This document shows, in pieces, positions 5,786 through 30,836 of a stretch of 64,000 nucleotides of DNA. The notes under the pieces were generated by a model, which was not told the DNA's origin, did not search any database, and saw only the letters and a list, made by a program, of their open reading frames with translations. Source of the DNA: Candidatus Eiseniibacteriota bacterium (lineage in GTDB: Bacteria > Eisenbacteria > RBG-16-71-46); assembly GCA_031364845.1 (NCBI GenBank), contig JANLWX010000065.1:1-64000 (forward strand). The letters run 5' to 3'. Position 1 is the first letter of the stretch. Each line of letters starts with the position of its first letter. Position numbers and translations under genes: made by a program.

Positions 5786-5799
5786 TTCAGATAGTTGAA
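5786..5799. promoter_or_regulatory. TTCA-N6-TGAA palindromic box (TTCAGATAGTTGAA)
   Basis: One of six intergenic copies; this copy lacks the 22-nt-spaced -10 and lies about -83 from the candidate leftward promoter. Confidence 0.5.
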
Positions 5800-6017
5800 G
5801 AAACGTGTCCACATGTCGCCGTCATGCCGTGCACCGGCACTCATGAGTTTGTCCTGTCGAAACTGCATCGCGCAGGAGCTACGGGGGAGAGCAGAAAAAC
5901 TCGGCTTAGATGTGTTGGATTGTCGCCAGCGACCGTCAGGGGCGCATCACGGGAAATCCCCGAGCTACGAGGGTAGAAGTAGCTAAGGCCGAGGGAAGGC
6001 CCGTCTCGGTCAGTTTC

Positions 6018-6570
6018 GAGCCTGTCCTGATTTCTGTGTAAGCCCATTCCGGGTCACGCGGACAGTCGTCCTCCGAACATGATGGCGAACTGGTTCAAAG
6101 CGAGATTCCAACACTTCGGTTGCCGCGGCCACTTCTTCTCCATGTTGAGGATTCCGAGGTAGACCGGCTTGAGTGCCGCTTCGTCATTCGGGAGGTGGCC
6201 ACGAGCCTTCGTTACCTTGCGCAGCGTGAAGTTCAGCGACTCGATCGCGTTCGTCGTGTAGATGATCTTGCGCACCTCATGGCCGAACGCGAAGAACGGT
6301 CGGACGCGCTCCCAGTTCGAGCGCTACGACTGGGCGACCATCGGTTAGCGGTCGTCCAACTTCCGTTCGAACTCGCTGAGGGGGGCGAGCGCCGCTTCCT
6401 CGGTCTGGGCCGCGTAGACCGATCGCAGGTCGGCGGTCAGGGCCTTGCGATTGATCCAAGCCACGAACCGCGTCGAGCTGCGGATCAGATTGACGATGCG
6501 CGTCTGGACGATCGCCCGCGGGAACACCGCCTCAATCGCTTCGGGGAAGCCCTTGAGCCCATCGCAGCAG
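6018..6570 (-). pseudogene. IS256-family transposase remnant (3' half, frameshifted) with right terminal repeat
   Basis: 'DGLKGFPEAIEAVFPRAIVQT', 'RKIIYTTNAIESLN...PNDEAALK.VYL...WNLALNQFAIMFGGR'; IS256-like end TTACACAGAAATCAGGACAGGCTC. Confidence 0.85.
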
Positions 6571-7160
6571 ACGACGAACTGGGGTCGCGCATGAGCCGAG
6601 TTGTCTTGCGGCTCTTGAGCCTGGCGATCGAACTGGGCCAGCCATTGACCGTGATTCAGCGCCGACTCGAGGTTCCGCAGCTGTCGCCAAGGATGCGAGT
6701 CGCTCGAAGGACACCACGCTTCGTGAGTACACGCAGTCGGGATTCGCCCGCGAGAGTCGTCCAGCCATCGACGCGTTGCTCGCTTCGCCTCGATTCCTTC
6801 CTCTTTCTTGACGAGGTCAAGCTCCCACTGTCAGCGCCAAGCTGCGTCTCGTTCGCCGACGCCCTGGAATCCATCGTGGATTTGGGCAGCCCACCCGCGG
6901 GTGCCGAGCGGGCACAGCGATTCTGAGCGGGTATCCTGACCGGTCGTATAACCCGGGCAATCCTGTCTTGGCCAGTCGGACCGGGAACGCCTCGCACTTG
7001 GGTCATCTTCGAGGAAGTCCAGGAAGCGCTCGAGAGGAATCAAGCCGAGCAGTTCCGCCGTCTGCTGACGCTGGCCCGGCACACGCGGGTGGCGGTAACC
7101 CTGATCGAGAGGATGTGTCATGCCGTGAAGCCGTCAGTGAACGATGCTACGGCCTACACG

Positions 7161-7472
7161 TTATCGCCGTAGGTGATCGCGAAGACTGTGGCCGCGTTTG
7201 GCAATTGCTGCGATGGCAAGAATGCCTCCCAAGAGCACGCCAGTGAGAGGCGAGAAGCCTGGGACGGTGTCCGTCGGCGGAGGGCATGCACAGTCCCCTG
7301 GAGAATTGTAACAGCAGCCCCCCAGAGCCTGACACGTCGCGCAGTCGGCCGTAGTGGAAGATGCTCCGGTTTGGCAATCCGTTACGCAGGTCGTTGCTTG
7401 GCAAAGCGTGGAGAACGATAGAGCGACGATGCAGGCAATGATTGCGCATGATGGATGGCGTAGTGACGTCAT
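7161..7472 (-). CDS. Small Cys-rich secreted protein with VPGF-TM-basic C-terminal sorting signal
   Basis: GGAGG RBS; signal peptide ending CQA; 8 Cys in the mature part; 'TVPGFSPLTGVLLGGILAIAAIAKR'. Confidence 0.7.
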   Translation of the reverse strand: MTSLRHPSCAIIACIVALSFSTLCQATTCVTDCQTGASSTTADCATCQALGGCCYNSPGDCACPPPTDTVPGFSPLTGVLLGGILAIAAIAKRGHSLRDHLRR

Positions 7473-7704
7473 GTACGTCCTCCCGGAGGGCTTCACCGTA
7501 CGGGCCGAAGTGTGTCGTGCGAGTTGCGAGTAGTTCACCGTCGCACCGGACTTCATTCGCGCTATGCCCGTGACGGGCTACCCAGCAGCGAGATCAACGC
7601 GGGGTCGCGGTTGTGTTCCACGGACTGATCCCAACTGCGCTGTCGTGGCGGTGCATGGAGCAATCAGCTCGCGATCACCGTTCCTGTGATGGCAACCCAA
7701 GACA

Positions 7705-8937
7705 CTAGTTGCCACCAGAAATGCCATTGAGCTGCCAAACGCCCCTGATCGCAGTCTGACGCGCCGCAGGTGAGTTGTTGAGGAAATCCAGGTGGTTGAG
7801 CGCGTCAAATCCGAGCTCGTCGCGACAGCCGTTCGAAATGCAGTTGTTGGGGAAGTGATTCATCGTATCGATAATGTTGGCAATGGTCAGATCGACGCCG
7901 TCGCCCCCGGTGTCGCCGTCGATCAAATCCCACAACGCCGCCGAATGACAGAACGGAAACTCCCATGGCCGATCGGCCGTGCGGCACTTGACCAGGACGC
8001 GGCCTTGGCCGTCGATTACCGTGGCAGCTTCGTAATTCAGCGTGCGATCGCCTTGTGTGATCGTCGGGTCGCAATTCTGACCGCCAAGCCAAACAACCAT
8101 CCAAAGATCGGCCATCCCTTCAAGAAAAGCTGCTTTCGAGAACTCCCGACTGTCCCGAGCCCAACCGGGCACACCAAACATCATGTAGTCAGAAAGTGGA
8201 TTGATCGGGGCAGAGTTCAGTTGTAACGCCGCCCACGTGATGGCATGACCCAGTTCGTGAGCCACTGTGCCTGGATTGCTTACCGCTCGCCCGGGAGTTA
8301 CCCACACTTCGTGCGGCACCGGCGTGATACCAGAAAAGATCCCAAAACCCTCTACGTTGACTTTCACAACTGTCCCGGGCATGCGCTCCCGAAGATTGCG
8401 CGATCGCGCGACAATCGTTTCGAAGAACTCACGAGTCGTCAAATATGCTGCTGACTCTTCGCCCGCCCGACTCGCGTCAACGATAATGTCCCCAAGATTG
8501 AAGTTATTGGTCGTTACATCGCGACGAAATGTCTCCTGGTCGCCATCGACCATGAACAGGACTCTGGGCGGCGTGCGTCCGCCACCGTTGGACTCTGAGG
8601 ACGTGTACGTAATCGTCAGCCTCAGGCGAATCGGTAGCGCACCCCGGGTCTCGTCCGTCCATTGGACCCGGAACCTTCCGTTTGCGTCCGTAACAGCGTA
8701 GTTGGTGGGGTTGATGAAAGACCCCCCGGTCATTGAACTGGCGGCGGGCGACGTAACCGCGACAACGAGCCGGCGCGCTGCGACCGTCGTCCCCAATGTG
8801 GCAGTGTTCGGGGACAGGCTGCGATTGTCGAAAATCAGCACACGCCCCGATACAACACCTCTAACCGTGGCATATGCGCGGGGTGCGCACATCAAGGCCA
8901 TTACGAGAATCAGACAGAATACCTGCGGCCTGAGCAT
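7705..8937 (-). CDS. Secreted zinc metallopeptidase-like protein (gluzincin-type)
   Basis: GAGGAG RBS, signal peptide (AYA), 'VAHELGH' plus downstream 'AFLEGMAD'. Confidence 0.75.
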   Translation of the reverse strand: MLRPQVFCLILVMALMCAPRAYATVRGVVSGRVLIFDNRSLSPNTATLGTTVAARRLVVAVTSPAASSMTGGSFINPTNYAVTDANGRFRVQWTDETRGALPIRLRLTITYTSSESNGGGRTPPRVLFMVDGDQETFRRDVTTNNFNLGDIIVDASRAGEESAAYLTTREFFETIVARSRNLRERMPGTVVKVNVEGFGIFSGITPVPHEVWVTPGRAVSNPGTVAHELGHAITWAALQLNSAPINPLSDYMMFGVPGWARDSREFSKAAFLEGMADLWMVVWLGGQNCDPTITQGDRTLNYEAATVIDGQGRVLVKCRTADRPWEFPFCHSAALWDLIDGDTGGDGVDLTIANIIDTMNHFPNNCISNGCRDELGFDALNHLDFLNNSPAARQTAIRGVWQLNGISGGN

Positions 8938-9025
8938 GTCGCGCTCCTCATGAACCATCTGGTTGTGCAATAGAAGAACTGCGGGGCAGCGGTGTGGGAG
9001 GACCAACGTGATCGATAGACTCCCG

Positions 9026-9067
9026 AACATGGACTAGAACCCAGTGGAGTGCATTCAGATAGCTGAA
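9026..9067 (-). promoter_or_regulatory. Candidate class II Crp/Fnr-type promoter: box TTCAGATAGCTGAA (9054-9067) with -10 CATGTT
   Basis: Box centre at -41.5 relative to the -10 at 9031-9026; upstream of the metallopeptidase. Confidence 0.6.
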
Positions 9068-9368
9068 GGCCTGATCAGGTTGTGTGACGCCACACCAAGT
9101 GCCATCGGCCGCCGTCGAAGGCCGTAAGCGGCTGGTTGTCACGGCTCTAGGGGCGATCAATGATCAAGGCAATGCGCGGTTGATATGCGATCTGCCGATG
9201 CGGCTCTTAGGTAGGCCCGCGACAGCGGCCGGCCCCGGAGACCCCCGGATGCATGGCCTCAGATCATTGGGCGTGAGATCCGCTTGGAGTATGCACTGAC
9301 GTGGCTCGGAATAGCGGGGCCTCCGCACGGGCGTTGCGAGCCTGTGCGGAGGCGTCCTGTGACCACAA

Positions 9369-9794
9369 CTAGGGGCAGTACTTCTCAGTCCCCGACGTAT
9401 TCGTCGTGACACTGGGCGAGTTGCTGACCGGCGAGCGATTGCCTGAAGCATCCGTGAACGTGATGGCAAAGTAGTAGGTCGTGCCCTGGGTCAGGCCCGT
9501 TACCGAGTAGCAGTCCGCTGTTCCACCACTGCCTGCCGGCGTCCCGTTGGAAACAACCACGGTTGCGGAGTAGTAGTTCGCTTCGGTGATCGCGGAGGCG
9601 GAGCGACGGATTTCGAACGACGTCGCGGTCCCACTCAGACAGTCGTCGCCGGCGTCCGTGAAGCCGAGCGGGACGGTCGTCTTACCGATTACCACTGCCG
9701 CAAGGTCCGACACCTTTGACGGCGGGCAGTTCTCGGCGTAGGCGGTCGCGGCGGCAAGGACCAGCATTACCAAGATCAGATAGGCACGCTTCAT
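9369..9794 (-). CDS. Small secreted fibronectin type III domain protein
   Basis: GGAGG RBS, signal peptide 'MKRAYL...AYA', 'GDD', 'VTGLTQGTTYYFAI...GNRSPVSN'. Confidence 0.85.
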   Translation of the reverse strand: MKRAYLILVMLVLAAATAYAENCPPSKVSDLAAVVIGKTTVPLGFTDAGDDCLSGTATSFEIRRSASAITEANYYSATVVVSNGTPAGSGGTADCYSVTGLTQGTTYYFAITFTDASGNRSPVSNSPSVTTNTSGTEKYCP

Positions 9795-9877
9795 CGTGAG
9801 CCTCCTGTGGAGTGACGAGGCGAGTGCACAAAGTCTGGGCGGATCCCGGATCTTTGAGCACCGCAACTCCACGTCGG

Positions 9878-9919
9878 AACGTAGGGCAAGGCGCGCCTGC
9901 GATCATTCAACTAGATGAA
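9878..9919 (-). promoter_or_regulatory. Candidate class II Crp/Fnr-type promoter: box TTCAACTAGATGAA (9906-9919) with -10 TACGTT
   Basis: Box centre at -41.5 relative to the -10 at 9883-9878; upstream of the FN3 gene. Confidence 0.65.
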
Positions 9920-9981
9920 CGCGCACGCTCGAGAGCATCCGAAGCGCAATCCGCCGTACCGCCCACCAATCGACGCCGATC

Positions 9982-10023
9982 TTCCACTAGCTGAATGCGC
10001 GTGACGCTGCTCCCGCAGAGAAT
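9982..10023 (+). promoter_or_regulatory. Candidate divergent class II promoter: box TTCCACTAGCTGAA (9982-9995) with -10 GAGAAT
   Basis: One mismatch to the box; same 22-nt spacing to 10018-10023. Confidence 0.5.
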
Positions 10024-10547
10024 GGCCTTTCCCCATTGAGGCCCAGAGCGGTCGCGCCGCGCCACCTCCGCAAAGATCATGGGCTCTGAGCGCACGCCTG
10101 TTCTAGGGGGAAGGAATGCTCTGAACGCTCTGATGCTGCGCCTCGTTGCCTGCATCGACCTTTCCGCGGTCATCGTCAACTCAGGCAGTGCCGCCCGCGT
10201 CGCCACGGTCTTTGCCTGCGACGGGATAAAGAAGCCCACTTGTCGGGGCGTGCTCACCGTTACCGGCTCGGACCTGGCGCGGCCCTCTTCATGACCTCAG
10301 TGGTCGACTTTCGACGTCGCCGCATGGTCGTGAGCTAGGAGTACGTGGTCTAGGTTTGTTGGCGTCGTGGGGGGATGGCCAACCTTGAAGTGAGTGACCG
10401 CATGCGCCTGGTCCAGTTTATGCGCGAGACCTATGGGGCTATTAGACGAGTTCATCGTGCGCGCGGGGCAACCGCTATTTCGGCCACCCTGGCACTCGAG
10501 AGTAACGCGACGCGCTGCTGGTCACGCAATCCACCACGAGGGTAGTC

Positions 10548-11408
10548 ATGACTACGAGCAAGATAGTGTACTTCGTGACGTGCAGCCTCATGATGATCGG
10601 GCCGATCCCTGCCGCAGTTGCTGGACCGATGCATGCGAGAGCGGCCATTTGCGCGCTCAACGGCTGCACGGCCTCTGCCGACTGCGAACCTCACAGCGGT
10701 GCCGCGCACGCTACAAAAACAGCGAGTACGGCCGCAGGAACCATTTCTGTTACCGCCCACGAACAGCTCGGCAATAACTACGTGCGAATATCCAATCCCG
10801 CCGTCTACCTTGGTTGGTCCGCCAGCGGACATGCGCACCATCACGCTGTGGGATGCATACCCATAGCCCCGAATGGCATCAACGGCGCGGAGAACAGTGA
10901 GGAGAGCGCCGTCGTTAGCGACAATCTCTTCGCGAACCAGACGTATGGCCCCGGACCAAATTCAAACACCATCGCAGTCGGGTTCGATTCAAGCTCGTTT
11001 CTGCAGCTGAACTTGTCAAATCCGGCGGTGATGACGACAGGCTGGATCATGGAGATTAATGGAACGGAGAGCAGCGTTGTTCTCCACGGCCTGTCAGGAG
11101 CATCGAACGATTCTGTGTGGGCCGAAACCACGGGACTGTTTGCCGGGCGCCAGTACACGATCTCGTCGTCACCAGGGCACGTGCACACCCTTAGGTTTGT
11201 GTCACCGCTCCAATGGACAGTAGCGGGGGTTTGGGATACGGCCGACATCGGGCTGGAGGCTAGCGTGTGTGCAGGTGCCTCAATGTGCACGGCAGAGGCT
11301 GTCCCCGTGCCTGCCGCTCCTCTCGCCGGAATCCTTGGGATGGGCTCGTTCCTCGTCTTGATTGGGGTAACCCGCCTCCGGCGCGGATTTGCGGGGCGGG
11401 GCGATTAA
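10548..11408 (+). CDS. Secreted protein with VPxA-TM-basic C-terminal sorting signal
   Basis: N-terminal signal peptide; C-terminus 'VPVPAAPLAGILGMGSFLVLIGVTRLRR'. Confidence 0.75.
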   Translation: MTTSKIVYFVTCSLMMIGPIPAAVAGPMHARAAICALNGCTASADCEPHSGAAHATKTASTAAGTISVTAHEQLGNNYVRISNPAVYLGWSASGHAHHHAVGCIPIAPNGINGAENSEESAVVSDNLFANQTYGPGPNSNTIAVGFDSSSFLQLNLSNPAVMTTGWIMEINGTESSVVLHGLSGASNDSVWAETTGLFAGRQYTISSSPGHVHTLRFVSPLQWTVAGVWDTADIGLEASVCAGASMCTAEAVPVPAAPLAGILGMGSFLVLIGVTRLRRGFAGRGD

Positions 11409-12031: not shown

Positions 12032-12074
12032 AAGACCTCCATCGCAAACGGGATGTTTGCGTGGAGGCCTCTAC

Positions 12075-12314: not shown

Positions 12315-15300
12315 CTAGGCTGTGCCGTTGGATCCCTTGGTGTCCACCAGCTGCATGCGATGCTTCTTCAAGCGATATCGCAGCGCTTGCTCGGTCAAAC
12401 CCAAGTCGCGAGCGGCCTGACTCTGATTTCCACCGCTGGCGCGAAGCGCATCCATCAGCACGCGTCTCTCATAGTCCTTAATGACTCTGGCTAGCCGACG
12501 ATTGCGCGCTGGCGCGCGTGTCGGGGTGCTGCTCACGTCACGAGGGGCTGGCTCCGGAGACAAGTAGCTCCCCGGCGTTAGCGCAAGCAGCCGCTCCAAA
12601 TAATTCTGAAGTTCCCGCACATTGCCGGGCCAGTCACTCTGGAGGAGGACGGCAAAAAAATCTGGTGAGAGCTTTGGAACGTCACGTTCTTGTTGCTTCG
12701 CAAATTGCGCCAAGAAGGCGCGGCTCAACTCTGGGATGTCCGCCTTCCGTTCCCGCAATGGAGGAATCGCGATCTCGATGACGCTCAGACGAAAGAACAG
12801 ATCCTCGCGAAACTTCCCGAGTTCAACCAGGCTGCGCAGGCTGCGATTCGTCGCGGCAACAATGCGCGCGTCGAAGGCGACCTCCTTCTGGCCCCCAACA
12901 GGCGTGACGGTGCGTTGTTGAATTGCCGCGAGCAGTGCGACCTGTTGACTCATGGGCATGTCACCAACTTCATCGAGGAACAGGGTGCCGCCGTCAGCTT
13001 GAACGAACTTGCCTGTCCGACCCCGGACCCCCGTCGCGACATTTGGCAGAATGCCAAAGAGTTCACTTTCCAAGAGGGTATCGGTGATTGCTCCGCAATT
13101 GACGGTGACGAAGGGACCGTGGGCGCGTTTGCCGCTACGGTGGAGTGCTTCGGCAATCAACTGCTTGCCGGTGCCGTTTTCCCCGGTGAGCAATACCGTG
13201 GTCTTGGTTCTGGCTGCGTGTTCAACCATGGTCAACACGCGACGCATGGGAGCGCTGGCGCCAATGACCCCGAACGCATGGCCACTCTTACCGACGACCG
13301 TACGCAACCCTACGTTCTCATCTCCGAGGCGAGTATTGGCTTGTTGGGCCTCGTCATGGCTGCGGCTTTTGTCGATTGCAACCGCGATGAGATGAACAAA
13401 GCCCTCGACCATGCTGCGTTGCGTTTCGGCAAAGGCATGAGTGCGCCGCGAGTCGTCCAAATAGACCATCCCGAGCAATCGACCATCGGTGAACAGCGGC
13501 ACGCAAAGGATGGATTGAATGTGCATTGCCTCAACACTGGCCGATGTCGTACGCGAGTCGCTGCCCGCGTCAAAGACCAGGAGGCTGTCGCCGCCCTCGG
13601 CGACCTGATGCACGACGCGTTTGCTGTATCCGAGCGCTGCCACGCGGGTCGAGGTCTCGATCTGCCCATATTCGGCCGCCGTAGTCATCTCGCCAGACAG
13701 AGGATCGACGAGCAGCAGGACTCCACGTTCCGCATCTAGTTGTTCGACGACGGCGCGCATGGCTCGCCGTAACAACTCGTCCAAGTCGGTGAGCGAGCTG
13801 AGGAGCCAGGAGGCACGTTCAATGAGCCCGAGCTCGCGCTCTGGTGCATCGTACGACTGGTTCGCGGAGGTCCATTTCACGGTCAACGTCAGTGCCGTAA
13901 CGCGACTGTGGTGATCGCCGCACCGTTCAAAAAGCGCAACCGCCTCCAGCAGGAGGCTCGTCAGTGGCGCGCGGACCGCTGCGGCAGCTGGGATCAACTG
14001 GGCAGCCTGCAAGATGGCCAGGGCGCGCTCATATGGTGCCGGCAATTCGGCGAATCGCCGCAGGGATTGTCCGAGGACGCGTAGACCCTCTGCGGAATTG
14101 CCGGCGACGAGTAGTCGTTCAGCCTCAAACACATCGCAATGTGCAGTCAGCAACGCGCTCGGGAATTTCGCCATCAACGTGCGGGCGCGTTCCACGTATT
14201 GATCAGTCGCCCTAGACTTTTCAAACCGGAGCGTGGCTCGAGCCGCGTTGATTGCGAGGAAGGCGACACCCAGACTCTCTGGCTGAGCGGTTTGGCGGAG
14301 ACCCGTCTCCCAGATATTGAGCGCTTCCTTCCAGCGGCCCTGCTGCGCGAGGATCCGACCGTACTCGATACGACACCATTGCGGCTCGGACCCTTGAGTA
14401 TCTCTCAGGGCGGCGTGAGCGCGCCGGACCGCCAGCAGCGCCAGGCCGGATCGGCCGGCCATGCGTTCTGCTTGGGCCAACGAGCGCCAGGCATAGGAAG
14501 AGAGGTCGGGCTGATGGCGTGCCGTGAGCCGAACGGCGCCGCGGGCTTGGCGACGTGCTAGCCGAGGATTGCCCAAGAGTCCGTCGACCTGCGCCATGTG
14601 GGACATCGCCACGGTGACTTCGATGAGACGACCGTCCTCGATGGCGAGTCTCAGTGCTTCAGCAAACGCTGCGCGCGCCGCCGGCCATTGGCCCAGGTCA
14701 ACCTTCACAGCCCCAAGCTTCATCAACTGTTCGCTCAGGGCCAGCCGATGATTACATTTTCGCGCGGCGGCTACGGCCAAGCCTGACTGCCGGTCCGCCC
14801 GAAGGATCTTGCCCCGTGCCCTGTATGCCAAGGCCTTCGTGCCCATGGCGCGAAGCACCCCGAGGGTGTTGTTGGCGCGGCGGTAGGCGCGGGCAGACTC
14901 GCTGATCCACTCCAAGGCGCCAGTCGCGTTGCCCCGGGCAAGCGCGAGGCGAACCAAGGTGTCCGAAGCCAATCCCATCCCGAGCCAATCCTTGGCCGTC
15001 TGAGAGTCGGCAAACGCGTCTCGTGCGTCACGCTCCGCCGATGGCTCTCCAAGCATCGCTCGCGCAATAGCCTGGTTGCCCCGCAGGCGATACCCCCAGG
15101 ACCCCGAGGCTTCCTGAAGTCCTTGATCGATGCGCTGCAGACACCCGCGTAAGTCTCCCGTGCGGAGATATGCCGTCGAGAGCCGAAAGAACAACTCGCC
15201 GCGCTGTAGAGGATCAAGTGCTCTCGTCAACGATCGTTCATAAAACGGAATGGCTGAAGCGTACTGGCAATCCTCGCGATACATCTCGCCAGCCCGATAG

Positions 15301-17330
15301 AACCATAGGGCTGCCTCAGAGAACCCATTCAGTTCGGCAAACTCACCTGCGGCCACCGCAAGGTGAGCGTCAGGCTGGTCGCCATGAGCTTGTTCCGCGG
15401 CCTGCAATGCCTGGTCCACATGCCCCAGAGCCCGCAGATGAACAAATCGCTCCCGGGCTGTTGTCGCCACCGCCGCGAGGGCCACGCGATGGAATCGACT
15501 CTGTATTTCGACGTCCGGCAAAGCCGCGGCCGGCGCTTGCAACCTTGATGAAGCCAGGAAGAATTTTTCGCCTTCCTCTGCGATCAGCGATTGGCGCTGG
15601 AGCTGAATGAGGTCATCGACTCTGGTCTTCGGCAGCAACGCACACAATTCCATCTTACTGAGCGGCCCAATGATGGCTAGGGCCGCCAGCGCTTCACGTT
15701 GCGCCAGAGGCAATCCGGACAACCGGTCCATCCGTGCCGCCATTGGGCCATTCAGGGCATTGTCGACCAAGATGTCGCCGCGGATGGCGACGCCATGGTC
15801 ATCTTCAACGACCGCCCCTTTGGAGACCAACCGGTGGAGCAGGTCGAGGGTGAACCCACAGTGGCCCTTGGCCTGTTGCCACAGGTACTTCACCAGCTGG
15901 GGTGGCGCTTCTGTTCCAAGTTGCATCGCGACCATTCGCTGCAGGTCATCTTCGCGGAGCGGACCGACGTCGATGGTTAAGGCAACACCACCAGCCTTGA
16001 GGACCTGCATTGCGTTATCCGTCTCCACCCCGTGCCCCAGAACCCACCACACCAGCTGTGAGCCTTCGGCTAGGATCACACGACGGAGCCAGGCAGCTGA
16101 CCAACGATCAAGCCGATCGGCGTCATCGATGACGATCAGGAGGTCGCCTACTCCTGAGGCGAATGCGCTCCGCGTCTGCTGAACCCAGTCGTCCAAGTCG
16201 TCGTTCGTCAATGGCTCCTTGCGATCGAACAGGCGGCTCAGGATTTGAGCGTTTGGCGTGGGCAACTGCGCGGCCAGCATTCTGAGTAGGGTGCGCGTCC
16301 CGCTTCCCCAAGCGGTTCCATGCGTCATGGCCAGATGGACCACGCGGCGTTCGCCAAGCGCGGCTCGGGCGGCAACTTCGTTCAAGAATGCTGAGCGCCC
16401 GGTTCCTGGTCTGCCTGCGACCAGCGCCACGCTGGGCACGGGTTTTGGCTGGATCAACCATTGGTCAAGCGAGCCTAGTTCGCGGTCACGTCCAATGACC
16501 CGAGACGCGCCTAGCCTGACCTCGAGTGAGCGAGCGGCATGCGGGGCTCGGCGCTCGATCTCGCGGCGGACGTCGCGAGCAGTGGCGGGGCGCTCGCTGG
16601 GCTTTTCGGCCAGCAGCCAGAGAAGTAGTTCGATGAGCTTCCACGGAACGTTGGCGATCTCTAGCGCTTGGACATCCGGTTTTGAACCGCGGTCGACAAA
16701 TGATCGCGATTCAACATCCTGCTCAAGAGGGGTCTTCCCGGTGATCAGCGCGTACAACGTAGCGCCCAAACCAAAGAGATCACTCGCGGTGTTGGCCGGC
16801 CCGCCGCCGACGATTTCAGGGGCTGCGAAGCCAAAGGTTCCTCGCCGGAAACTCTCAGGACCAACGCGGAGAGCTGAAAGTCCGAAATCCACCAGGCGCA
16901 CGTCGCGGTGGTGACCTCGAGCGCTGGACACCAAGATGTTGGAGGGTTTCAGGTCACCGTGGATTACCCCCGCGTCGTGGAGCGCTTCAAGACCCTCGAC
17001 CACCCGGCAGCCAACGGAAAGCGCGGAACTCCAATCGCCTCGGTCGACCGCTCGGTCGGATGGCACGCCCGGCACATATTCCAGCGCCAGATAGGGCGTT
17101 CCATCGGCCGAGACAGCGCAGTCTAAGACCTGGACGATGACCGGATGGCGAAGTTGAGCCAGGGCCTTGAATTCTCTGCGCAAGACGGTGAGAGGGTCGG
17201 CGATCTCGGGATTCAGGCGCTTGATGGCGCAGACCGACCCGGTAGCGAGGTCGCGCGCGAGAAAAACCTCGCCCATTCCACCATGGCCGAGTTTGCGCAA
17301 CAGAAGGTAGCGCGCTGCAAAGGTTTCCAT
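12315..17330 (-). CDS. Ser/Thr kinase-AAA-TPR-GAF-sigma54-interacting Fis-family transcriptional activator
   Basis: GHGGMG, AIK, HGDLKPSN, DFG, APE; P-loop GRPGTGRS; TPR-like helices; GAF 'SILCVPL...GMVYLD'; GENGTGK, ESELFG, GGTLFLDEVG, WPGNVRELQN; HTH 'GGNQSQAARDLG'. Confidence 0.93.
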   Translation of the reverse strand: METFAARYLLLRKLGHGGMGEVFLARDLATGSVCAIKRLNPEIADPLTVLRREFKALAQLRHPVIVQVLDCAVSADGTPYLALEYVPGVPSDRAVDRGDWSSALSVGCRVVEGLEALHDAGVIHGDLKPSNILVSSARGHHRDVRLVDFGLSALRVGPESFRRGTFGFAAPEIVGGGPANTASDLFGLGATLYALITGKTPLEQDVESRSFVDRGSKPDVQALEIANVPWKLIELLLWLLAEKPSERPATARDVRREIERRAPHAARSLEVRLGASRVIGRDRELGSLDQWLIQPKPVPSVALVAGRPGTGRSAFLNEVAARAALGERRVVHLAMTHGTAWGSGTRTLLRMLAAQLPTPNAQILSRLFDRKEPLTNDDLDDWVQQTRSAFASGVGDLLIVIDDADRLDRWSAAWLRRVILAEGSQLVWWVLGHGVETDNAMQVLKAGGVALTIDVGPLREDDLQRMVAMQLGTEAPPQLVKYLWQQAKGHCGFTLDLLHRLVSKGAVVEDDHGVAIRGDILVDNALNGPMAARMDRLSGLPLAQREALAALAIIGPLSKMELCALLPKTRVDDLIQLQRQSLIAEEGEKFFLASSRLQAPAAALPDVEIQSRFHRVALAAVATTARERFVHLRALGHVDQALQAAEQAHGDQPDAHLAVAAGEFAELNGFSEAALWFYRAGEMYREDCQYASAIPFYERSLTRALDPLQRGELFFRLSTAYLRTGDLRGCLQRIDQGLQEASGSWGYRLRGNQAIARAMLGEPSAERDARDAFADSQTAKDWLGMGLASDTLVRLALARGNATGALEWISESARAYRRANNTLGVLRAMGTKALAYRARGKILRADRQSGLAVAAARKCNHRLALSEQLMKLGAVKVDLGQWPAARAAFAEALRLAIEDGRLIEVTVAMSHMAQVDGLLGNPRLARRQARGAVRLTARHQPDLSSYAWRSLAQAERMAGRSGLALLAVRRAHAALRDTQGSEPQWCRIEYGRILAQQGRWKEALNIWETGLRQTAQPESLGVAFLAINAARATLRFEKSRATDQYVERARTLMAKFPSALLTAHCDVFEAERLLVAGNSAEGLRVLGQSLRRFAELPAPYERALAILQAAQLIPAAAAVRAPLTSLLLEAVALFERCGDHHSRVTALTLTVKWTSANQSYDAPERELGLIERASWLLSSLTDLDELLRRAMRAVVEQLDAERGVLLLVDPLSGEMTTAAEYGQIETSTRVAALGYSKRVVHQVAEGGDSLLVFDAGSDSRTTSASVEAMHIQSILCVPLFTDGRLLGMVYLDDSRRTHAFAETQRSMVEGFVHLIAVAIDKSRSHDEAQQANTRLGDENVGLRTVVGKSGHAFGVIGASAPMRRVLTMVEHAARTKTTVLLTGENGTGKQLIAEALHRSGKRAHGPFVTVNCGAITDTLLESELFGILPNVATGVRGRTGKFVQADGGTLFLDEVGDMPMSQQVALLAAIQQRTVTPVGGQKEVAFDARIVAATNRSLRSLVELGKFREDLFFRLSVIEIAIPPLRERKADIPELSRAFLAQFAKQQERDVPKLSPDFFAVLLQSDWPGNVRELQNYLERLLALTPGSYLSPEPAPRDVSSTPTRAPARNRRLARVIKDYERRVLMDALRASGGNQSQAARDLGLTEQALRYRLKKHRMQLVDTKGSNGTA

Positions 17331-17718
17331 TGCCGGCCCACGTTGATGTCCAATTCCACGCTTGGCTCACTAGGGGAACTGAACGGTACTGCCGAATCTA
17401 GCGCTAAGGCAATGGGAACTCTTCAAATAGGTCCGTCGAAAGGACTTGCCGCTGGCTCGCGAATTTCTCGCCCGGGTCAGTACAACATCGAGCCGGATAA
17501 GCGGAAGTACTGAAAGGACGTTACGAGTTTTCGAAAAAGTACATCGCAGGAAATCTGCGAATGCCGTGGGCATGCCCCGCTTCATCAGCCCGCGCTTTCC
17601 AAGAATTCGCGGCCTCAAGCGATCGGCACAGCAACTGCTTTCAGCTTGGTTGGGGGCCGCCCCGACCAAGTGTGCCTTATGAATCTGAGCCAATCCTCGC
17701 CGTGGAAGGAAATCGTCA

Positions 17719-18504
17719 GTGCCCGAGACCACGCGTGCCCAACTAGCGACGCGATTTGGACACTTCTCCTTACCTGTCACGGACCGGGTCTCTTCATTGG
17801 GGACGAGTCGCACCTACCCTGCTCGATACACGTTCTTCAGTCAGGGTGAAGGAGTCGAGGATGTTCTGTACCTCGAGCACGGCCTCGTCAAGCTTGTTCG
17901 GGGAAACCAGGACGGTCGGGAAGAGAGAATCATTGGGCTGCGCGCCGATGGGTGGGTCATCGGCGCCGCAGCCGCCATCCTCGACGAACCCTATGTCGCG
18001 ACGGCCGTCACGGTTGTGCCGAGCCGAATCGCTCGAGTGGCGGCCACGGAATTCAGGAGGCGGCTCCAGACAGATCACGAGCTTTCTGCGGCTGTGCACC
18101 GTATGCACGCTCGCGAAGTCTACAACGAACTCACGCAGGTAACGGAAAGCTCAATTTCCGCACGATCCCGTTTGGAACATCTCCTTCGCAACCTTGCCTC
18201 TCTGGAGCCGCCAAAGGGCTCGGGAGAGATCCACGTGCAGATGCCGCTTCGACAATGGGAGGTCGCCCAGATTGTCGGCGTCGCTCCACCCTATCTGTGT
18301 CAGCTGATGGCTGAGATGGAGGAGGATGGAATTCTAAGACGGGAGCGAGGCGCGGTGGTGCTCACCCTCCAGGGTCGGGACCACACAATTGCTCTGAGCA
18401 ATGCTCCGATCGCCAATGGTGGGCTGTCAGCATCAGCGATGGCATCGGGCGCGCCCAACCATCCGCTCGCGGCTGGCCGTTCTGCCGAGGCGCCTCCGAG
18501 ATAG
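17719..18504 (+). CDS. Crp/Fnr family transcriptional regulator
   Basis: cNMP-binding fold 'FFSQGE...LYLEHGLVKL...G.E.IIG...G.VIG...ATAVTV'; C-terminal HTH 'LRQWEVAQIVGVAPPYLCQLMAEMEEDGIL'. Confidence 0.9.
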   Translation: MPETTRAQLATRFGHFSLPVTDRVSSLGTSRTYPARYTFFSQGEGVEDVLYLEHGLVKLVRGNQDGREERIIGLRADGWVIGAAAAILDEPYVATAVTVVPSRIARVAATEFRRRLQTDHELSAAVHRMHAREVYNELTQVTESSISARSRLEHLLRNLASLEPPKGSGEIHVQMPLRQWEVAQIVGVAPPYLCQLMAEMEEDGILRRERGAVVLTLQGRDHTIALSNAPIANGGLSASAMASGAPNHPLAAGRSAEAPPR

Positions 18505-18807: not shown

Positions 18808-18849
18808 TTCAACTAGATGAATGCGCTGCCAAGGAGGAGTGTGCAGGAT
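18808..18849 (+). promoter_or_regulatory. Candidate class II Crp/Fnr-type promoter: box TTCAACTAGATGAA (18808-18821) with -10 CAGGAT
   Basis: Extended palindrome CATTCA-N6-TGAATG; 22 nt to the -10 at 18844-18849; upstream of DyP. Confidence 0.65.
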
Positions 18850-18931: not shown

Positions 18932-20362
18932 ATGCCGATCGATCTGAGTAAGCCCATTGCCTGGAAACTCGCTAATCACGATGAACAAAGAATGCTGCGA
19001 AGCCTCCAAGGCAACATACTCAAGGGTCATGGGCGATCCGCGACGTTGAACGTGTTTTTCGCCATCGACCCGGTCAAGAAGCACTCGGTGCGTGCTGCCC
19101 TTCGGACCATTGCCACCTTTCATGCTACTTCCGCATATCAACAGTTGCTCGAGACCGAACGATTCAAACAAACAGGCGAATCGGGAAGCCCGTTCGTTTC
19201 CGTCCTACTCTCCGCCTCGGGCTACGTCGCTCTGGACGTCCCAACAGAACAAATACCGGACGGTCAAAGCTTTAGGGAGGGCATGAAGGCGGCAGCCCTC
19301 GGAGACCCGCCTGTTGCTAGCTGGGACCAGCCTTTTCAAGGTCAGATCGACGGGCTGGTCCTGCTCGCGAGCGAGAACGATACGGCGCTTCGACTCAAGC
19401 GAGATGCGGTGGTGACGCTGTTGACTGAAGCTGGCGCGACCGTCGTCAAGGAGCAGCCTGGGCGAGCCCTTTTCAACAAGGCCAACGATGGCATTGAGCA
19501 CTTCGGTTACGTGGATGGTCGTAGTCAACCCCTTATGCTCGAAGAGGATGTTGAGCGCGAGGCCAGAGATGCTGGCATCGCACAGTGGGATCCGCAGTCG
19601 ACACTCGACGCTGCTCTCGTGCCTGAACCGGGCGCAAGCGACGACATTAGCTTCGGCAGCTATTTTATCTTTCGCAAGCTCGACCAGAATGTGCGCGAGT
19701 TCAAGCGCAGGGAGCTAGAGTTGGCGGTTGTGCTCGGGCTGACGGGCGAGGCACGTGAGCTGGCGGGCGCTTTGGTTGTTGGCCGTTTTGAAGACGGTAC
19801 GCCGGTGACCATGTCGAGCGAAGCTCGCGGCGTCAATCCTCCGAACGACTTCAACTACGACGCCGACGCGGGTACACGTTGCCCGTTCCACGCACACATC
19901 CGGAAGACAAATCCGCGAGGGAGCGGTGGCTTCGAGCCGCTCCCTAACGAACGCAAGCACCTGATGCCGCGTAGAGGAATTCCCTACGAGGATGTTGTTC
20001 GTGTGGTCCATCCGGTGGACGTTCCAGAGAGCGAGTCACTGGCCCAATTCGACGCTGAGGTCGCGCCCAAGCTGCCAACCGGGGATGTTGGTCTGCTGTT
20101 CATGGCCTACAACCGAGATCTATCGGTGCAATTCGAATTTACTCAGAAGACCTGGGCAAATAATGCAGGCTTTCCGCAGGCGCCAAATGCGCCGGGTCTC
20201 GATCCGGTAATCGGGCAGGGGCCCGTTAGCTTGCAGCCGTGGCCAATGCAGTGGGACGACATCGGCCTTGGGGCAACGCCATTCTCGTTTCAAGGATTAG
20301 TTACCATGCGCGGAGGCGAATATTTCTTTGCACCCAGTCTAAATTTTCTCCGAGCCCTATAG
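18932..20362 (+). CDS. Dye-decolorizing (DyP-type) heme peroxidase
   Basis: 'LQGNILKGHGR', 'EHFGYVDGRSQP' (GxxDG), 'CPFHAHIRKTNPR', 'RRGIPY', 'GLLFMAY', 'GGEYFFAPS'. Confidence 0.93.
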   Translation: MPIDLSKPIAWKLANHDEQRMLRSLQGNILKGHGRSATLNVFFAIDPVKKHSVRAALRTIATFHATSAYQQLLETERFKQTGESGSPFVSVLLSASGYVALDVPTEQIPDGQSFREGMKAAALGDPPVASWDQPFQGQIDGLVLLASENDTALRLKRDAVVTLLTEAGATVVKEQPGRALFNKANDGIEHFGYVDGRSQPLMLEEDVEREARDAGIAQWDPQSTLDAALVPEPGASDDISFGSYFIFRKLDQNVREFKRRELELAVVLGLTGEARELAGALVVGRFEDGTPVTMSSEARGVNPPNDFNYDADAGTRCPFHAHIRKTNPRGSGGFEPLPNERKHLMPRRGIPYEDVVRVVHPVDVPESESLAQFDAEVAPKLPTGDVGLLFMAYNRDLSVQFEFTQKTWANNAGFPQAPNAPGLDPVIGQGPVSLQPWPMQWDDIGLGATPFSFQGLVTMRGGEYFFAPSLNFLRAL

Positions 20363-20999
20363 GACAGGGGGCACTCTGCGACGGAAGCCGTAACAGTGAG
20401 GAAATCCCGTCTGCGTTGTCTGGCGCAACTGCCCGACCATGTGGTCGTGCGTTCAGGGCAGCGACATAGGATCACACGTAGTCTTCCAAATTGTAACTGA
20501 GCACGTCCGTGAACTCCTTGTGTGCATGACCCAACTTCAGGAGAGAACCACGCCCTTCATTGCCAATTGCCCTCAAATCCAAGGGCCCAAGGAGGGTAGC
20601 CTCAAGCTCAGTTCAATCTTTCGCAGGGAGTAAATCTCGTAATTCCTTCACCGGGGCCCCAAGGAAGGACGGCCCCGTTGTCAAAACCTGGTTGGTCGTC
20701 CGATCGACGTCGCTTGGAGTTGTTAGGGTTCTGGGGAATTCCATGCAAGGAGCATGGTTCCCAGCAGCGTACCACCCACGCGAAGCCGCATGCATTACTT
20801 CCGGGTACGACCGAGAGGTCTTTACAGTAGCCGACGATCACAAATGCGAAGACCGGAGCTTTTGCAACAACACAGCTGCTCAGCACACGACGGACCTTGG
20901 TTGGGGGGATGAACGTCTCCGACAAAAATATCGCCGCAATGGCTCAATAAACCCATGTGGAAGGATTAGCGGCTGGAAATGAAACCCACGCCCCCGACC

Positions 21000-24850: not shown

Positions 24851-24930
24851 TGTGACCGCAGTGGGTCCATGGGCCATATACCGATATGGACAGAGGTGAT
24901 GGCTAGGGCGGGCGTGATTAATGCTGAAGC

Positions 24931-27006: not shown

Positions 27007-27538
27007 CCTTTGCGCAGCCGTTATGTTTGGGCTGATGTTGTTGTGGAGTGTCACGGTCGTGAACTATGCGCAAGCAGCACCGTCAGGTGGCTACAGTGCT
27101 GATGCGCAAAGCGAATACGTCATCGCAATGATGCTAGTACGCGACGGTCGATTCGCGGAGAGTCTGGTACATTTCGAACGGGGCATGATCGTCGGTGTTA
27201 TGGATCCTGGATACTGGGTGGCTTACGGCATTGCGTTGCGGGGCACAAGTACGAGCGGTGAGGTGATTGAGAAGCGAAGAGTTGCACGGGTGCGTTCCAG
27301 TTACGAGCGAATGCTTATGCTGCGACAGGCACGCGAATGCTTTGTCCAGGCCTTGAAGCTCAGCAAGAAGGACGACGAGCGAGCACGCATTGCGGACCAG
27401 ATGGGACGTTTGTTGTGGTTTGTTGGTTCGCCGGTGGATGGACGGAGTCATTTGGGCGACGCTGCAGCATTCTCGCCGTTGTTCGACAGCGTGGTTAGCG
27501 CCTATGACTCGACGTTTAGGCGTCTGTGCCAAGAATGA
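26996..27538 (+). CDS. Secreted TPR-like hypothetical protein
   Basis: Signal peptide (AQA), helical repeats 'GRFAESLVHFERG...DPGYWVAYGIAL'. Confidence 0.6.
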   Translation: MRNDLCAAVMFGLMLLWSVTVVNYAQAAPSGGYSADAQSEYVIAMMLVRDGRFAESLVHFERGMIVGVMDPGYWVAYGIALRGTSTSGEVIEKRRVARVRSSYERMLMLRQARECFVQALKLSKKDDERARIADQMGRLLWFVGSPVDGRSHLGDAAAFSPLFDSVVSAYDSTFRRLCQE

Positions 27539-27927
27539 AGGGCATCGTATAGACCGGTGGCCGCTCGGCCCATAGTCGTGCTATGACTTACTGTGCGCCA
27601 TGCCAAAAGAAGGCTGACTGAACCGCAATGGGTTGCTGTCTGAGCTGCATCTGCAGGCGGAGCCCGGATCGGAGAACGGGGCCGAGGCCTTTGCTGCGCG
27701 CGCAGTAGCGCCGACTTGATCCTTACGCGTGGAGACGCAAGGCATTTACGCAAGCACTGTTCGAGGACCATTCGCCAGCGTTAGTATCGCGCCGCCGTGA
27801 CGAGGAAGCACATTAGTTGGAATCAAACCTTGTTCGTCTCGTAGCTGGGGGGTGATGTGGCGCAGAATTCCCTTCGCAACTGGCCAACAAAACGACCCTA
27901 AGGCGCAAGTCCAGCGGTGAGGGCGCG

Positions 27928-28128
27928 GCTAACCGCATGCTTTAGCGAGAGGGTGCAGTGGCTCGGGTAGGCTCACCGAATCCGCTGAAATGCGGCTGAA
28001 TGCCGAGGTCGCGGCCACGCCCAGATCCTAGACCGATGGCCCTTCTCGCGCTAGAGTGAATTCACGGAGCCGCGCCAGCGGCCCAAGACCGGCCTGACTG
28101 CACCTTTTCGCTAAAGGGTGCAGTCAGG
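27928..28128. repeat. Pair of inverted tyrosine-recombinase-type core sites (27928-27963 and 28093-28128)
   Basis: CTTTAGCGAGAGGGTGCAGT (27940-27959) matches the reverse complement of ACTGCACCTTTTCGCTAAAG (28097-28116) at 18/20; the second site is a palindrome with perfect 12-bp outer arms. Confidence 0.7.
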
Positions 28129-28157
28129 TCGCGACTGTTTCACTCACCCTCCCGCCT

Positions 28158-28757
28158 ATGCCCGATCCTCTCGGGCCCAATCAGCGCATACCCCGCTATC
28201 TCTCTCAAGCCGAAGTCGGTCGCTTCTTCGAGGCGATCCCCGCCGGCCGGGATCGGCTGCTCTTTGGCCTGATCTACCTGTACGGCTTGCGAGTCGGGGA
28301 AGTCGCGCTCTTGCGCGTGGGGGATGTCGACCTCGAGCGAGGCCGAATTCTAATTCAGCGTCTCAAGGGCGGCGCGTGGTCGGAGCGGCCAATCTTCCGA
28401 TCGGTGGAGGCACCGCTGCGGGCACACCTGACGGCCAGACGCGCTGACTCATCCTTGGCGCTGTTCCCCGGTCGTGCAGGTCCACTCAAGAAGCGGCAAA
28501 TCCAGGCGCTCTTCGAGCGCTATCGAGGCGGCGCCGGTTTGCCGGACACGTTCACCTGCCACTGCCTGCGACATTCGATCGCCACGCACCTCCTCGATGC
28601 CGGCGTTGCCCTTGAGTTCGTCCAGGACCACCTCGGGCACCAAAGCATTCGCTCAACGTCGATCTACGCCCGGATCACGGACCACCGTCGGGCGGAAGTC
28701 TTTCGCCAGCTCGAAGCGTCACCGTGGATTGTTCAGCCCATGATTGGAGAACGTTGA
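28158..28757 (+). CDS. Short (FimB/FimE-like, catalytic-domain-only) tyrosine recombinase
   Basis: 'YGLRVGE', 'RLKGG', 'HCLRHSIATHLL', 'QDHLGH.SIRSTSIYA'. Confidence 0.9.
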   Translation: MPDPLGPNQRIPRYLSQAEVGRFFEAIPAGRDRLLFGLIYLYGLRVGEVALLRVGDVDLERGRILIQRLKGGAWSERPIFRSVEAPLRAHLTARRADSSLALFPGRAGPLKKRQIQALFERYRGGAGLPDTFTCHCLRHSIATHLLDAGVALEFVQDHLGHQSIRSTSIYARITDHRRAEVFRQLEASPWIVQPMIGER

Positions 28758-30082
28758 TGGCCACGAAATCACTTCTGGTCAGGGCAGTGGCATGGATGTC
28801 GATCTTAGTTCTTGCTGCTGGTTGCGGTTCAGACGTATCGCAGCGGTCAACAGAGCTCATTCGGCTGCGCTCCTACGACCAAGCGGTAACACTGTTGCGG
28901 GAGGGGATTAGCAAGCGACCTCGAGAGGCGAAGCTCCATCGTCTGCTTGGCGACGCCCTCAGCGGAGCCGCCAGTGAGTGGCGGTTCGGGACTGACCCTG
29001 ACCAACGTCGGGTTGAAGAAGCAGCCGAACAAGCCCTGTCTTCGTACAAAGCGGCGCTGCAGCTTTCCCCGCGCGATCTTCCCACGCTTTACCATCTCGC
29101 TTGTGTAGACCCCGATCTTGCCTCCGTCCAGGACCGACTGTGGACCATCCTCAGCCTGGATCCCAACCACCCGGCCAAGGTCAGCATCGCGGATCGCCTG
29201 GCCCGAAGCGACAACCTCGCCCTCGCTGCCCGAGGTGACTCCTTGGCCCGACTGTCCGCTTCGGCGGTGAAGCTGTCCGGGGAGTGGGTGGCGACCATTG
29301 GGAACGAAGGGACCAGCGGGTCACTCGCGGTGATCGGCGCTTCGGCCACGCTACGGGATCCGAGCACGAAGCAGCCGGCAGGCGAGATCCCCGCCGGAAG
29401 CGTCTGGCCTTGCGTGCGATCGGGCAGTCCACCGCAGCTGCTGATGGATTATCCACGCCAAGTGACGCACACCGGCTGGATGTTGGCGGGCTTCGCCAGA
29501 ATGGCGACAGGGCAGACGCGACGCCTTCCTGAAATTATCCTGATGGCCTATGCCGCCCCGACTACACTGCGTCCGTTTGAGACCGCCAACACTCGATGGA
29601 TTTCCTCACCGACAACCGAGGTGGACCGCACCGGTTATGAGTTGAGCGAGGCCGAGATCAGCACCGTCACTCTCCTGCCGGCGACGCAAAGCCGACTCTA
29701 CCGCACGGACATTAGGGCCGAGGTCAGAGAGTGGCAACAGGTGAGTTGGGTTGAACACGTCCAGGATCGGTTGGCGGTCGATACGGCATCCGTAATTTTT
29801 CTGCCGATCTCTTACGAGCAGCTGCAACACAAACTGACCAGCCTCGATGCACTCCAGCTCTCTGATCCCAAGGTCCGGGACGCGTTGCTACGGGGGCAAC
29901 TGCGAGCCGGCCTGACCCCCGCCATGGTGCGCGCCGCCATTGGCCACTTTGGAGAACGCCGCATCGGCTGGGATGATGAAAAACTACTATTCGAAGCGCA
30001 GACGACAGCCACGAATGGGTCCGCGCCGCTCGTCCTCCATTTCACCGATGGATTGCTGAGCGCCTGGGAGATGGCTCGCTAG
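28757..30082 (+). CDS. TPR-containing lipoprotein
   Basis: Lipobox LAAGC; TPR helices; TGATG overlap with the recombinase stop. Confidence 0.7.
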   Translation: MATKSLLVRAVAWMSILVLAAGCGSDVSQRSTELIRLRSYDQAVTLLREGISKRPREAKLHRLLGDALSGAASEWRFGTDPDQRRVEEAAEQALSSYKAALQLSPRDLPTLYHLACVDPDLASVQDRLWTILSLDPNHPAKVSIADRLARSDNLALAARGDSLARLSASAVKLSGEWVATIGNEGTSGSLAVIGASATLRDPSTKQPAGEIPAGSVWPCVRSGSPPQLLMDYPRQVTHTGWMLAGFARMATGQTRRLPEIILMAYAAPTTLRPFETANTRWISSPTTEVDRTGYELSEAEISTVTLLPATQSRLYRTDIRAEVREWQQVSWVEHVQDRLAVDTASVIFLPISYEQLQHKLTSLDALQLSDPKVRDALLRGQLRAGLTPAMVRAAIGHFGERRIGWDDEKLLFEAQTTATNGSAPLVLHFTDGLLSAWEMAR

Positions 30083-30513
30083 AAGCTGGGCCCCCGTCAA
30101 CGGAGGAAGGCACCATGAGTCTGCGTTTCGGAATTCTCGTCGTCACGACTTGAGTCACCACTGTTCTGCACGGTGCGGCAAGTGAAGGGCTGGCCAGCCC
30201 AGACAGTCTGGGTGGTCTGTGAGGCTGGGAAAGCCGACGAGGTTTCGTCTGGCCAGACGAAACTGGCGGTACCCAGCCAAGCATTACGCGATTCACTCGA
30301 TCGCATCGCGGGGCTGTCGTCGTCGCCGACGATACGTGCGTCGACTTCGTGGAGGTCTTTGCTGATTGCGTCACCCCAGCTCGGCGATCGATGTGGGGGT
30401 CCGTGGAGATGCGTACCGATAGTCTGCTGCGACAACATCGCCTTCGCAGGCGGGGTGAGGAGGAGCTGAACACCCGGTCAACTCGTCCGAGGCGAGAAAG
30501 AAATTTGCGCATC

Positions 30514-30555
30514 TTCAGCTAGATGAAGGCGGCGGTCATCGCGACCTATTACCCT
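30514..30555 (+). promoter_or_regulatory. Candidate class II Crp/Fnr-type promoter: box TTCAGCTAGATGAA (30514-30527) with -10 TACCCT
   Basis: Extended CTTCA-N6-TGAAG; 22 nt to the -10 at 30550-30555; upstream of the four-gene cluster. Confidence 0.65.
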
Positions 30556-30834: not shown

Positions 30835-30836
30835 AC

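Follow-up and report, generated by a model that had tools for sequence, protein, structure and literature searches.

Six 14-bp palindromes of the form TTCA-N6-TGAA lie between genes in a 64,000-nt stretch of DNA from a Candidatus Eiseniibacteriota bacterium (assembly GCA_031364845.1, contig JANLWX010000065.1, positions 1 to 64,000; hereafter the window). They are very probably the sites at which a Crp/Fnr-family protein encoded among them, by a gene here called crp, would bind as a dimer centred at -41.5 and activate sigma70-type class II promoters island-wide. Judged from the co-location of box, promoter element and regulator gene, and from the co-variation of box and protein, the promoters predicted to respond are those of secreted-protein, peroxidase and peptide-cluster genes across a genomic island that ends at a tRNA-Lys gene. 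By published work on CRP, Pro180 of the recognition helix (CRP numbering throughout) would go with the TT of each arm, and the loss of Glu181 (here to Pro181, elsewhere to Gln181) with a change from G to C at the third arm position, so that the box would represent an FNR/DNR-type site re-coded to escape the Glu181 regulator of the host. Contigs of the window's genome are designated C (C204, C126, C112, C121, C203, C215, and C55), other genomes G, and homolog loci L.

All six palindromes of the preliminary description of this DNA were verified, letter for letter, at 5786, 9054, 9906, 9982, 18808, and 30514, and a search for TTCANNTAGNTGAA with at most one mismatch returned 12 strand hits, equivalent to these six sites, against a mean of 0.20 and a maximum of 2 in 100 shuffles. 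The bare pattern TTCA-N6-TGAA, by which the box had been defined, is unspecific (93 copies genome-wide, mostly coding); because 80 of the 84 copies that lack the central TAG sit inside open frames of at least 200 aa, this core, the conservation of which had already been remarked upon, is counted as part of the motif, and the true motif is the tighter TTCA-N-(C/A)TAG-N-TGAA. The pattern TTCADVTAGHTGAA occurs at seven distinct sites in the window's genome, whereas none of 205 other genomes from the phylum has more than two strand hits (range 0–2). In five genomes (G133, G159, G102, G155, and G152) the CTAG-core pattern has 0–2 copies versus 25–39 for its reversed control, so that CTAG is strongly avoided there. 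A matrix of the six sites, scanned across the genome, yielded two further sites of equal strength (C204:35775 and C204:53152) and, chosen from lower in the list, a weaker one (C204:40491), all in the likely island part of C204, which makes the set wider than the 25 kb first attributed to it.

Class II activator sites are centred at -41.5. Five of the window's boxes are followed, towards the next gene and after exactly 22 nt, by the A..T hexamers previously listed for them (Table 1), and a hexamer of this kind stands at a gap of 22 nt in eight of nine sites in the genome, with any other gap between 14 and 45 nt found at no more than two sites; the three C204 sites among the nine had been found without use of this feature. 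Base conservation around the window boxes ends 2–4 nt outside the palindrome and returns only at the -10 element. The -35 position of these promoters is weak, as would be expected if they depend on an activator. In class II promoters, 22 bp separate the 16-bp site from the second base of the -10 element (PMC10187061); this spacing, with the site lying over the -35 position, was found in the same eight of nine sites and, with an A..T hexamer at a gap of 22 or 23, in 32 of 35 distinct boxes of the protein family, in agreement with the class II geometry originally proposed. A combined box-plus-minus-10 model built from 38 foreign promoters (three of them added by hand), with no window sequence and with C assumed, by hypothesis, as the arm base, puts the five promoters of the window at ranks 1, 2, 5, 8, and 11 genome-wide, and places 8 of the 15 distinct positions above the reversed-genome maximum inside the island, which makes up 1.6% of the genome. 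The same model gives an intergenic candidate outside the island (C112:4651); C121:14155 scored highly but lies inside a 280-aa open reading frame (ORF) and, like C215:18548, was not counted.

The crp product is a Crp/Fnr-superfamily member distinct from CRP, FNR, DNR, and CooA. It matches PF00027 (49.8 bits) and PF13545 (28.9 bits), both above cut-off, and its predicted model (pLDDT 79.5) has the C-helix and helix-turn-helix (HTH) of the fold, with the top Foldseek matches all of CRP type (E 6e-16); it reaches no named family cut-off (NCBIfam CRP 35.9 bits versus a cut-off of 266), and the ESM Atlas returned only generic Crp clusters. Alignment to DNR and GlxR places Pro, Pro, and Gln at positions 180, 181, and 185 in place of Arg180, Glu181, and Arg185, which bears out the atypical recognition helix claimed for it. 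The cAMP-binding Glu and Arg are missing, as the G-E and P-R-T of GlxR align with G-A and P-Y-A/V in the family, and there is one Cys in the 261-aa protein versus the four that define the 4Fe-4S ligands of FNR. The family profile matched 560 clusters at E ≤1e-30. Of 161 proteins (the best 150 of the 560 clusters plus the first hits), 143 have Pro at position 180, and at position 181 there are 68 with Glu, 38 with Gln, 27 with Pro, 9 with Thr, 8 with Ser, and 11 with another residue; two His residues of the C-helix are common as well (105 and 71 of the 161). The gene is patchily distributed, with 5 of the phylum's 206 genomes carrying it. The window's genome encodes just one more Crp/Fnr protein, on C126, which has Val180, Glu181, and Arg185; no perfect CRP box (TGTGA-N6-TCACA) occurs in the genome.

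Phylogenetic footprinting drew on 17 genome and 77 metagenome homolog loci, which with the window gave 95 rows, 80 of them distinct; three lacked downstream DNA, leaving 77 distinct rows, or 76 without the window. The window's own matrix found little in the first 17 loci, since TTGA arms prevail among the relatives: when all N6 palindromes there were counted without bias, TTGA-N6-TCAA came up 25 times in 13 loci, often just past the crp stop codon. A second matrix was therefore made from 18 distinct boxes of Glu181 loci, with no window sequence and with the two discriminating arm positions masked. At a threshold of 12 bits (background 95th percentile 11.5 bits), it detects a box within 500 nt past crp in 37 of the 76 distinct loci (38 of 77 with the window), those of other phyla included, and the same module of box plus -10 element is found behind crp there. 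Across the window's whole genome, the masked matrix ranks 18808, 9906, and C204:35775 first, second, and fourth. A second box lies 22 bp upstream of 24 of the 35 distinct family boxes. Past most of the boxes comes TGAC, which together with the final A of the palindrome makes a -35-like ATGACA. In G152, a Gln181 genome, the only perfect box is located at the crp stop codon as the first of three spaced 22 bp apart, with CATCTT 22 nt past the last. One further perfect box, at L019 (G029), was set aside: it falls inside a 330-aa ORF, and no crp homolog was found for it at E 1e-35.

Across these loci, the base in the arms changes with residue 181. At the 12-bit threshold, the arms of 30 Glu181 loci carry 59 G and 1 A, those of five Gln181 loci 6 C and 4 A, those of the window (the only Pro181 locus) 2 C, and those of two Ala181 loci 4 G; Glu181 homologs thus go with the FNR-type TTGA-N6-TCAA and Gln181 or Pro181 homologs with TTCA or TTAA. 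Below the threshold, TTCA sites were recognized by eye at L049 (Gln181) and L118 (Pro181). In a tree computed without the helix columns (trees of 36 of the rows and of 91 rows were made), the window protein falls in a clade of eight rows (support 98/95), the four box-bearing members of which all have TTCA. The clearest single case is a sister pair, L052/L061 (Gln181) versus L121/L033 (Glu181), with support of 100/99, in which both arms are switched within near-identical promoters; between L052 and L033 the box changes from TTGATCTCGATCAA to TTCACCTAGTTGAA and the promoter past it is almost unchanged. Residues 180 and 181 are known to co-vary with the operator, Pro181 occurring with GTAAC in HcpR2 and Gln181 with TTAAC in NssR (PMC1274295), and Pro180 has been associated with T at position 5 and the CooA-derived Gln181 with C at position 7 (PMC2677863). 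The description of the box as new is thus partly sustained: the TTCA arms set it apart, while its geometry is of the FNR/DNR type, from which it departs by having C in place of G in each arm, in keeping with the published residue-base rule.

Several observations weigh against these interpretations. The starred branches of the tree provide only two formal independent contrasts (sign test p 0.5), so that co-evolution of residue 181 and arm is illustrated by the sequences and not statistically established, and residue 181 alone does not dictate the base, because the Ala181 loci keep G and the published Pro181 (HcpR2) and Gln181 (NssR) regulators read A rather than C (PMC1274295). The four window boxes other than 18808 and 9906 are absent from the top 60 sites of the masked matrix. 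No box at the threshold lies past crp in 39 of the 76 distinct homolog loci, including 8 of 15 non-Glu loci and L031, the closest named homolog, nor was one above 10.5 bits found in 12.6 kb of an Acidisarcina plasmid, whose homolog (28.7%, Glu181) was the best match from a plasmid of a cultured Acidobacterium. Three genomes of the same family (G159, G102, and G155; 90–98% complete) have the gene and no perfect box, and a relaxed CTAG-core pattern gave no alternative box in G159 or G102. Box 5786 has no A..T hexamer at 22 nt on either side, the promoters at C204:40491 and C204:53152 run into the 3' ends of genes on the opposite strand, and that at C204:35775 precedes a decayed reading frame.

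It is from these absences, and from the 518 nt that separate the 9982 promoter from the next clear gene, that the best of the alternatives draws, namely that the protein does bind the boxes and the regulon is largely relic or repressive, with several promoters left without a gene to drive. This is improbable, since four window promoters, those of the HExxH, FN3-like, and DyP-type peroxidase genes and of the cluster at 30598, stand 36–82 nt before genes with clear ribosome-binding sites, the weak -35 position fits dependence on an activator, and the promoter geometry is kept in nearly all family boxes.

A reader other than the island protein, either the Crp/Fnr protein of C126 or another factor of the core genome, is very improbable. 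A second full Crp/Fnr protein does exist in the genome, and one good site, C112:4651, lies outside the island; against this, the Glu181 and Arg185 of the C126 helix go with G both in the available literature and in 59 of 60 arms, and the box is not enriched in the 205 related genomes, the same-genus G133 included. The island protein is further preferred as the reader on account of the module that accompanies its homologs and of the arm base that follows their residue 181.

A box held 22 nt from a -10 element does not have the geometry of an enhancer. It is hardly credible that the boxes are enhancer sites of the neighboring sigma54 activator, even though the gene for this protein, which has a Fis-type HTH, lies centrally among the boxes and activators of this kind neighbor crp in G102 and 18 other loci: no -24/-12 pattern was found within 250 nt behind any box, most activator-flanked loci with Arg-Pro-Glu have no box past crp, and loci without a detected activator have one. 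Equally hard to credit are recombination sites or cassette ends for the small tyrosine recombinase encoded in the island (28158-28757), an idea to which the inverted arms around a 6-bp spacer lend themselves, as conservation stops just outside the box and resumes only at -10, the module follows crp genes, and a single homolog locus matched the recombinase. Activation by the island Crp/Fnr protein from class II sites thus remains the strongly favored reading.

Table 1. Features of the window bearing on the proposed regulon (positions of the window; strand "." where none is assigned).
Feature	Position	Strand	Remarks
Box TTCAGATAGTTGAA	5786..5799	.	Lacks a -10-like hexamer 22 nt away in either direction; relic or orphan
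Box	9054..9067	-	Points left to secreted HExxH protein gene
-10-like CATGTT	9026..9031	-	22 nt from box 9054; predicted start ~9019
Predicted target, secreted HELGH protein, metalloprotease-like	7705..8937	-	Likely start ATG 8937 after GAGGAG
Box	9906..9919	-	Points left to FN3-like gene
-10-like TACGTT	9878..9883	-	22 nt from box 9906; predicted start ~9871
Predicted target, small secreted FN3-like protein	9369..9794	-	Weak matches, below cut-offs
Box with one mismatch, TTCCACTAGCTGAA	9982..9995	+	Points right
-10-like GAGAAT	10018..10023	+	22 nt from box 9982; predicted start ~10030
Possible target, 286-aa secreted protein	10548..11408	+	C-terminal hydrophobic anchor-like segment; 518 nt past predicted start
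Ser/Thr kinase-AAA-TPR-GAF-sigma54 activator	12315..17330	-	Divergent from crp; 1671 aa
Sigma54-like -24/-12 site CGGCACAGCAACTGCT	17624..17639	+	~80 nt before crp
Crp/Fnr-family regulator (crp)	17719..18504	+	Helix A-P180-P181-Y-L-C-Q185; predicted box reader
Box	18808..18821	+	304 nt past crp stop, the usual place in the subfamily
-10-like CAGGAT	18844..18849	+	22 nt from box 18808; predicted start ~18856
Predicted target, DyP-type peroxidase	18932..20362	+	Behind box 18808
Box	30514..30527	+	Points right
-10-like TACCCT	30550..30555	+	22 nt from box 30514; predicted start ~30562
Predicted target, five-ORF cluster	30598..32694	+	78, 149, 127, up to 228, and 127 aa
tRNA-Lys(CTT) with 46-bp att core	43621..43697	-	Island right end; copy at C204:32503-32548

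The predicted targets are those first proposed, except that the cluster consists of five ORFs rather than four, a 78-aa ORF (30598-30834) missing from the earlier list being the first gene behind box 30514. The Cys-rich 149-aa product of this cluster has homologs among the genes for ribosomally synthesized and post-translationally modified peptides (RiPPs) in both plasmid regions examined, of 11 records matched. These homologs lie in RiPP clusters of the NHLP/Nif11 type, and no modifying enzyme was identified beside 30598-32694; the 127-aa ORF at 31290-31673 has a Gly/Cys-rich tail resembling that of a RiPP precursor. No plasmid match was found for the ORF that ends at 32296. The HELGH protein has no Pfam or NCBIfam match. 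In the 518-nt gap behind the 9982 promoter (10030-10547), a long leader, a small RNA, or a 71-aa ORF (10079-10294) is possible. The products of 7161-7556 and 10548-11408 are both small secreted proteins without a family match, the tail of which, at once Pro-rich, hydrophobic, and basic, resembles a sorting signal. A broken transposase on the minus strand (~6054-7010), which to judge by a motif may be IS256-like, adjoins the orphan box 5786.

In the relatives, the first ORFs past the promoter encode MbtH proteins (confirmed with Pfam in both of two tested and recognized by eye in two more), short Cys-containing precursor-like peptides (one with a weak match to thiopeptide precursors, the others without a family), and also RfaH-like antiterminators, an RHS protein, and secreted proteins. 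Six loci (L058, L067, L069, L072, L078, and L117) encode, ~100 nt past the promoter and often in tandem, peptides of 54–60 aa with an acidic leader and an NNC..GNC core; the one tested has no Pfam or NCBIfam match, and an undescribed family of RiPP precursors under this regulator is possible. At L101 (1786-2118), a peptide with many CxxC repeats and no family match directly follows a TTCA-box promoter.

The amount of the regulator may itself be governed by the divergent kinase-sigma54 activator acting on a sigma54 promoter, which would yield a two-step cascade; this is offered as a lead only. Scored with a hand-weighted consensus, the putative -24/-12 site before crp exceeds the 99th percentile for random windows, and similar sites precede crp at L031, L048, L074, and L080, on neighboring branches, with 9 of 77 rows at that level versus a 4% background. 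A full-length homolog of the activator lies beside the crp homolog of G102, and a second full-length copy (42%) is encoded on C55. The hand-weighted consensus and the lack of a good sigma54 site in G102 count against this step.

The island occupies the first 43.6 kb of the window (GC 0.596) up to the tRNA-Lys(CTT) gene, the DNA beyond which matches the end of C126 in all three relatives examined. C204 has a GC content of 0.584 from the att copy at 32503 to its end, a part that holds all three C204 sites, and its start is overlapped by the end of C126 over 141 bp, in a fork common to C203. The tRNA-Lys copy, the GC content, and the C126–C204 overlap make it likely that the window and C204 each hold a portion of a single island array, at least 74 kb long, with no assembled sequence joining them. 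Tandem islands are marked by the two places on C204 where the tRNA-Lys 3' end recurs (32503-32548 and 20376-20426); a tRNA-Gly-like 5' fragment next to an integrase stands at the end of C204, and the window's contig begins in the end of an insertion sequence. Between 33500 and 59000, C204 carries defence- or conflict-like genes (a DUF4062-DnaA fusion, a pYEATS protein, and a SIR2-like DUF4917 protein) and, by eye, a nucleotidyltransferase-patatin set that is a candidate for a system like CBASS (cyclic-oligonucleotide-based antiphage signaling).

A broader proposal, held tentatively and with slightly less than even confidence, is that the protein represents an undescribed mobile Crp/Fnr subfamily of cluster-situated activators of peptide-biosynthetic and secreted-protein loci, in which a hypervariable helix has repeatedly exchanged Glu181 for Gln or Pro together with both operator arms. 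At 50% identity this subfamily comprises 150 clusters or more, of which those with a name come mainly from Acidobacteriota and Eisenbacteria. Were this so, the exchanges would insulate each island from FNR-type regulators of the host and from other islands, and a predicted DNA site would be assigned to an unnamed Crp/Fnr subfamily of uncultured bacteria. Since its usual neighbors are RiPP-like, nonribosomal peptide synthetase (NRPS)-type, and secreted-protein genes, the box may help to delimit and activate such clusters, serving as a marker by which silent biosynthetic clusters in uncultured bacteria from soil could be searched for, with the protein as their switch. The sister genes with one helix change, the same promoter, and both arms altered would constitute a natural specificity switch on which the residue-base rule is directly testable, and TTCA/TTGA pairs are candidate orthogonal activator-promoter parts.

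Among characterized systems, DNR, HcpR, and NnrR are the nearest, with a box (TTGAT/C-N4-A/GTCAA) like the TTGA-N6-TCAA of the subfamily's Glu181 members; DNR is the best sequence match of the family profile in the PDB (E 9.6e-25) and shares Pro180. The window protein differs from DNR and HcpR, which combine Pro180 or Ser180 with Glu181 and TTGA arms, in having Pro181 and Gln185 and a TTCA box. Haem/NO sensing and control of N-oxide metabolism characterize DNR and HcpR, and the targets seen here are not genes of denitrification or N-oxide metabolism. The CRP consensus has CTAG at its center, as does the window box. The fold is likewise that of E. coli CRP and FNR, and the 22-bp spacing is that of their class II promoters (PMC10187061). 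Unlike CRP, the window protein has neither the Arg180/Glu181/Arg185 triad nor the cAMP-binding residues and appears to be a local island regulator rather than a global one; unlike FNR (Glu181, TTGAT-N4-ATCAA), it combines Pro181 with TTCA arms, Glu181 with TTGA being confined to its Glu181 relatives. CooA, a haem-based sensor of CO, shares C at position 7 but has Arg180 and Gln181, against Pro180 and Pro181 here, and matches the profile at only ~1e-8 to 1e-9.

CooA, HcpR2, and NssR provide the precedent for a change at residue 181 that alters the position-7 base (PMC2677863, PMC1274295), although none of them gives TTCA-N6-TGAA in the text available, and here the switch recurs within one subfamily, sister genes included. 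The base-contacting residues have been called highly conserved family-wide (PMC12531629, in the text available), whereas Glu181 is found in only 68 of the 161 proteins of this family. CRP-annotated genes have been reported, without motifs in the available text, in nonribosomal peptide and polyketide synthase clusters from soil (PMC11520301), and the main text of PMC3590769 contains no TTCA string; no description of the TTCA motif or of the subfamily was found in the literature, including that on Crp proteins of islands, of gene clusters, and of Acidobacteria, although the figures, motif tables, and supplements of the papers cited could hold a TTCA motif. The co-variation of residue 181 with the operator base is known, and this subfamily and its box, as far as the available texts extend, appear to be new. 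Relatives of the window protein often have two or three tandem boxes 22 bp apart, before MbtH-headed clusters, RiPP-precursor-like ORFs, and secreted proteins, in contrast to the single boxes of the window. In this placement they resemble the SARP-like (Streptomyces antibiotic regulatory protein) cluster-situated activators of secondary-metabolite genes: the role would be alike, each being encoded beside its targets, and the protein family is different.

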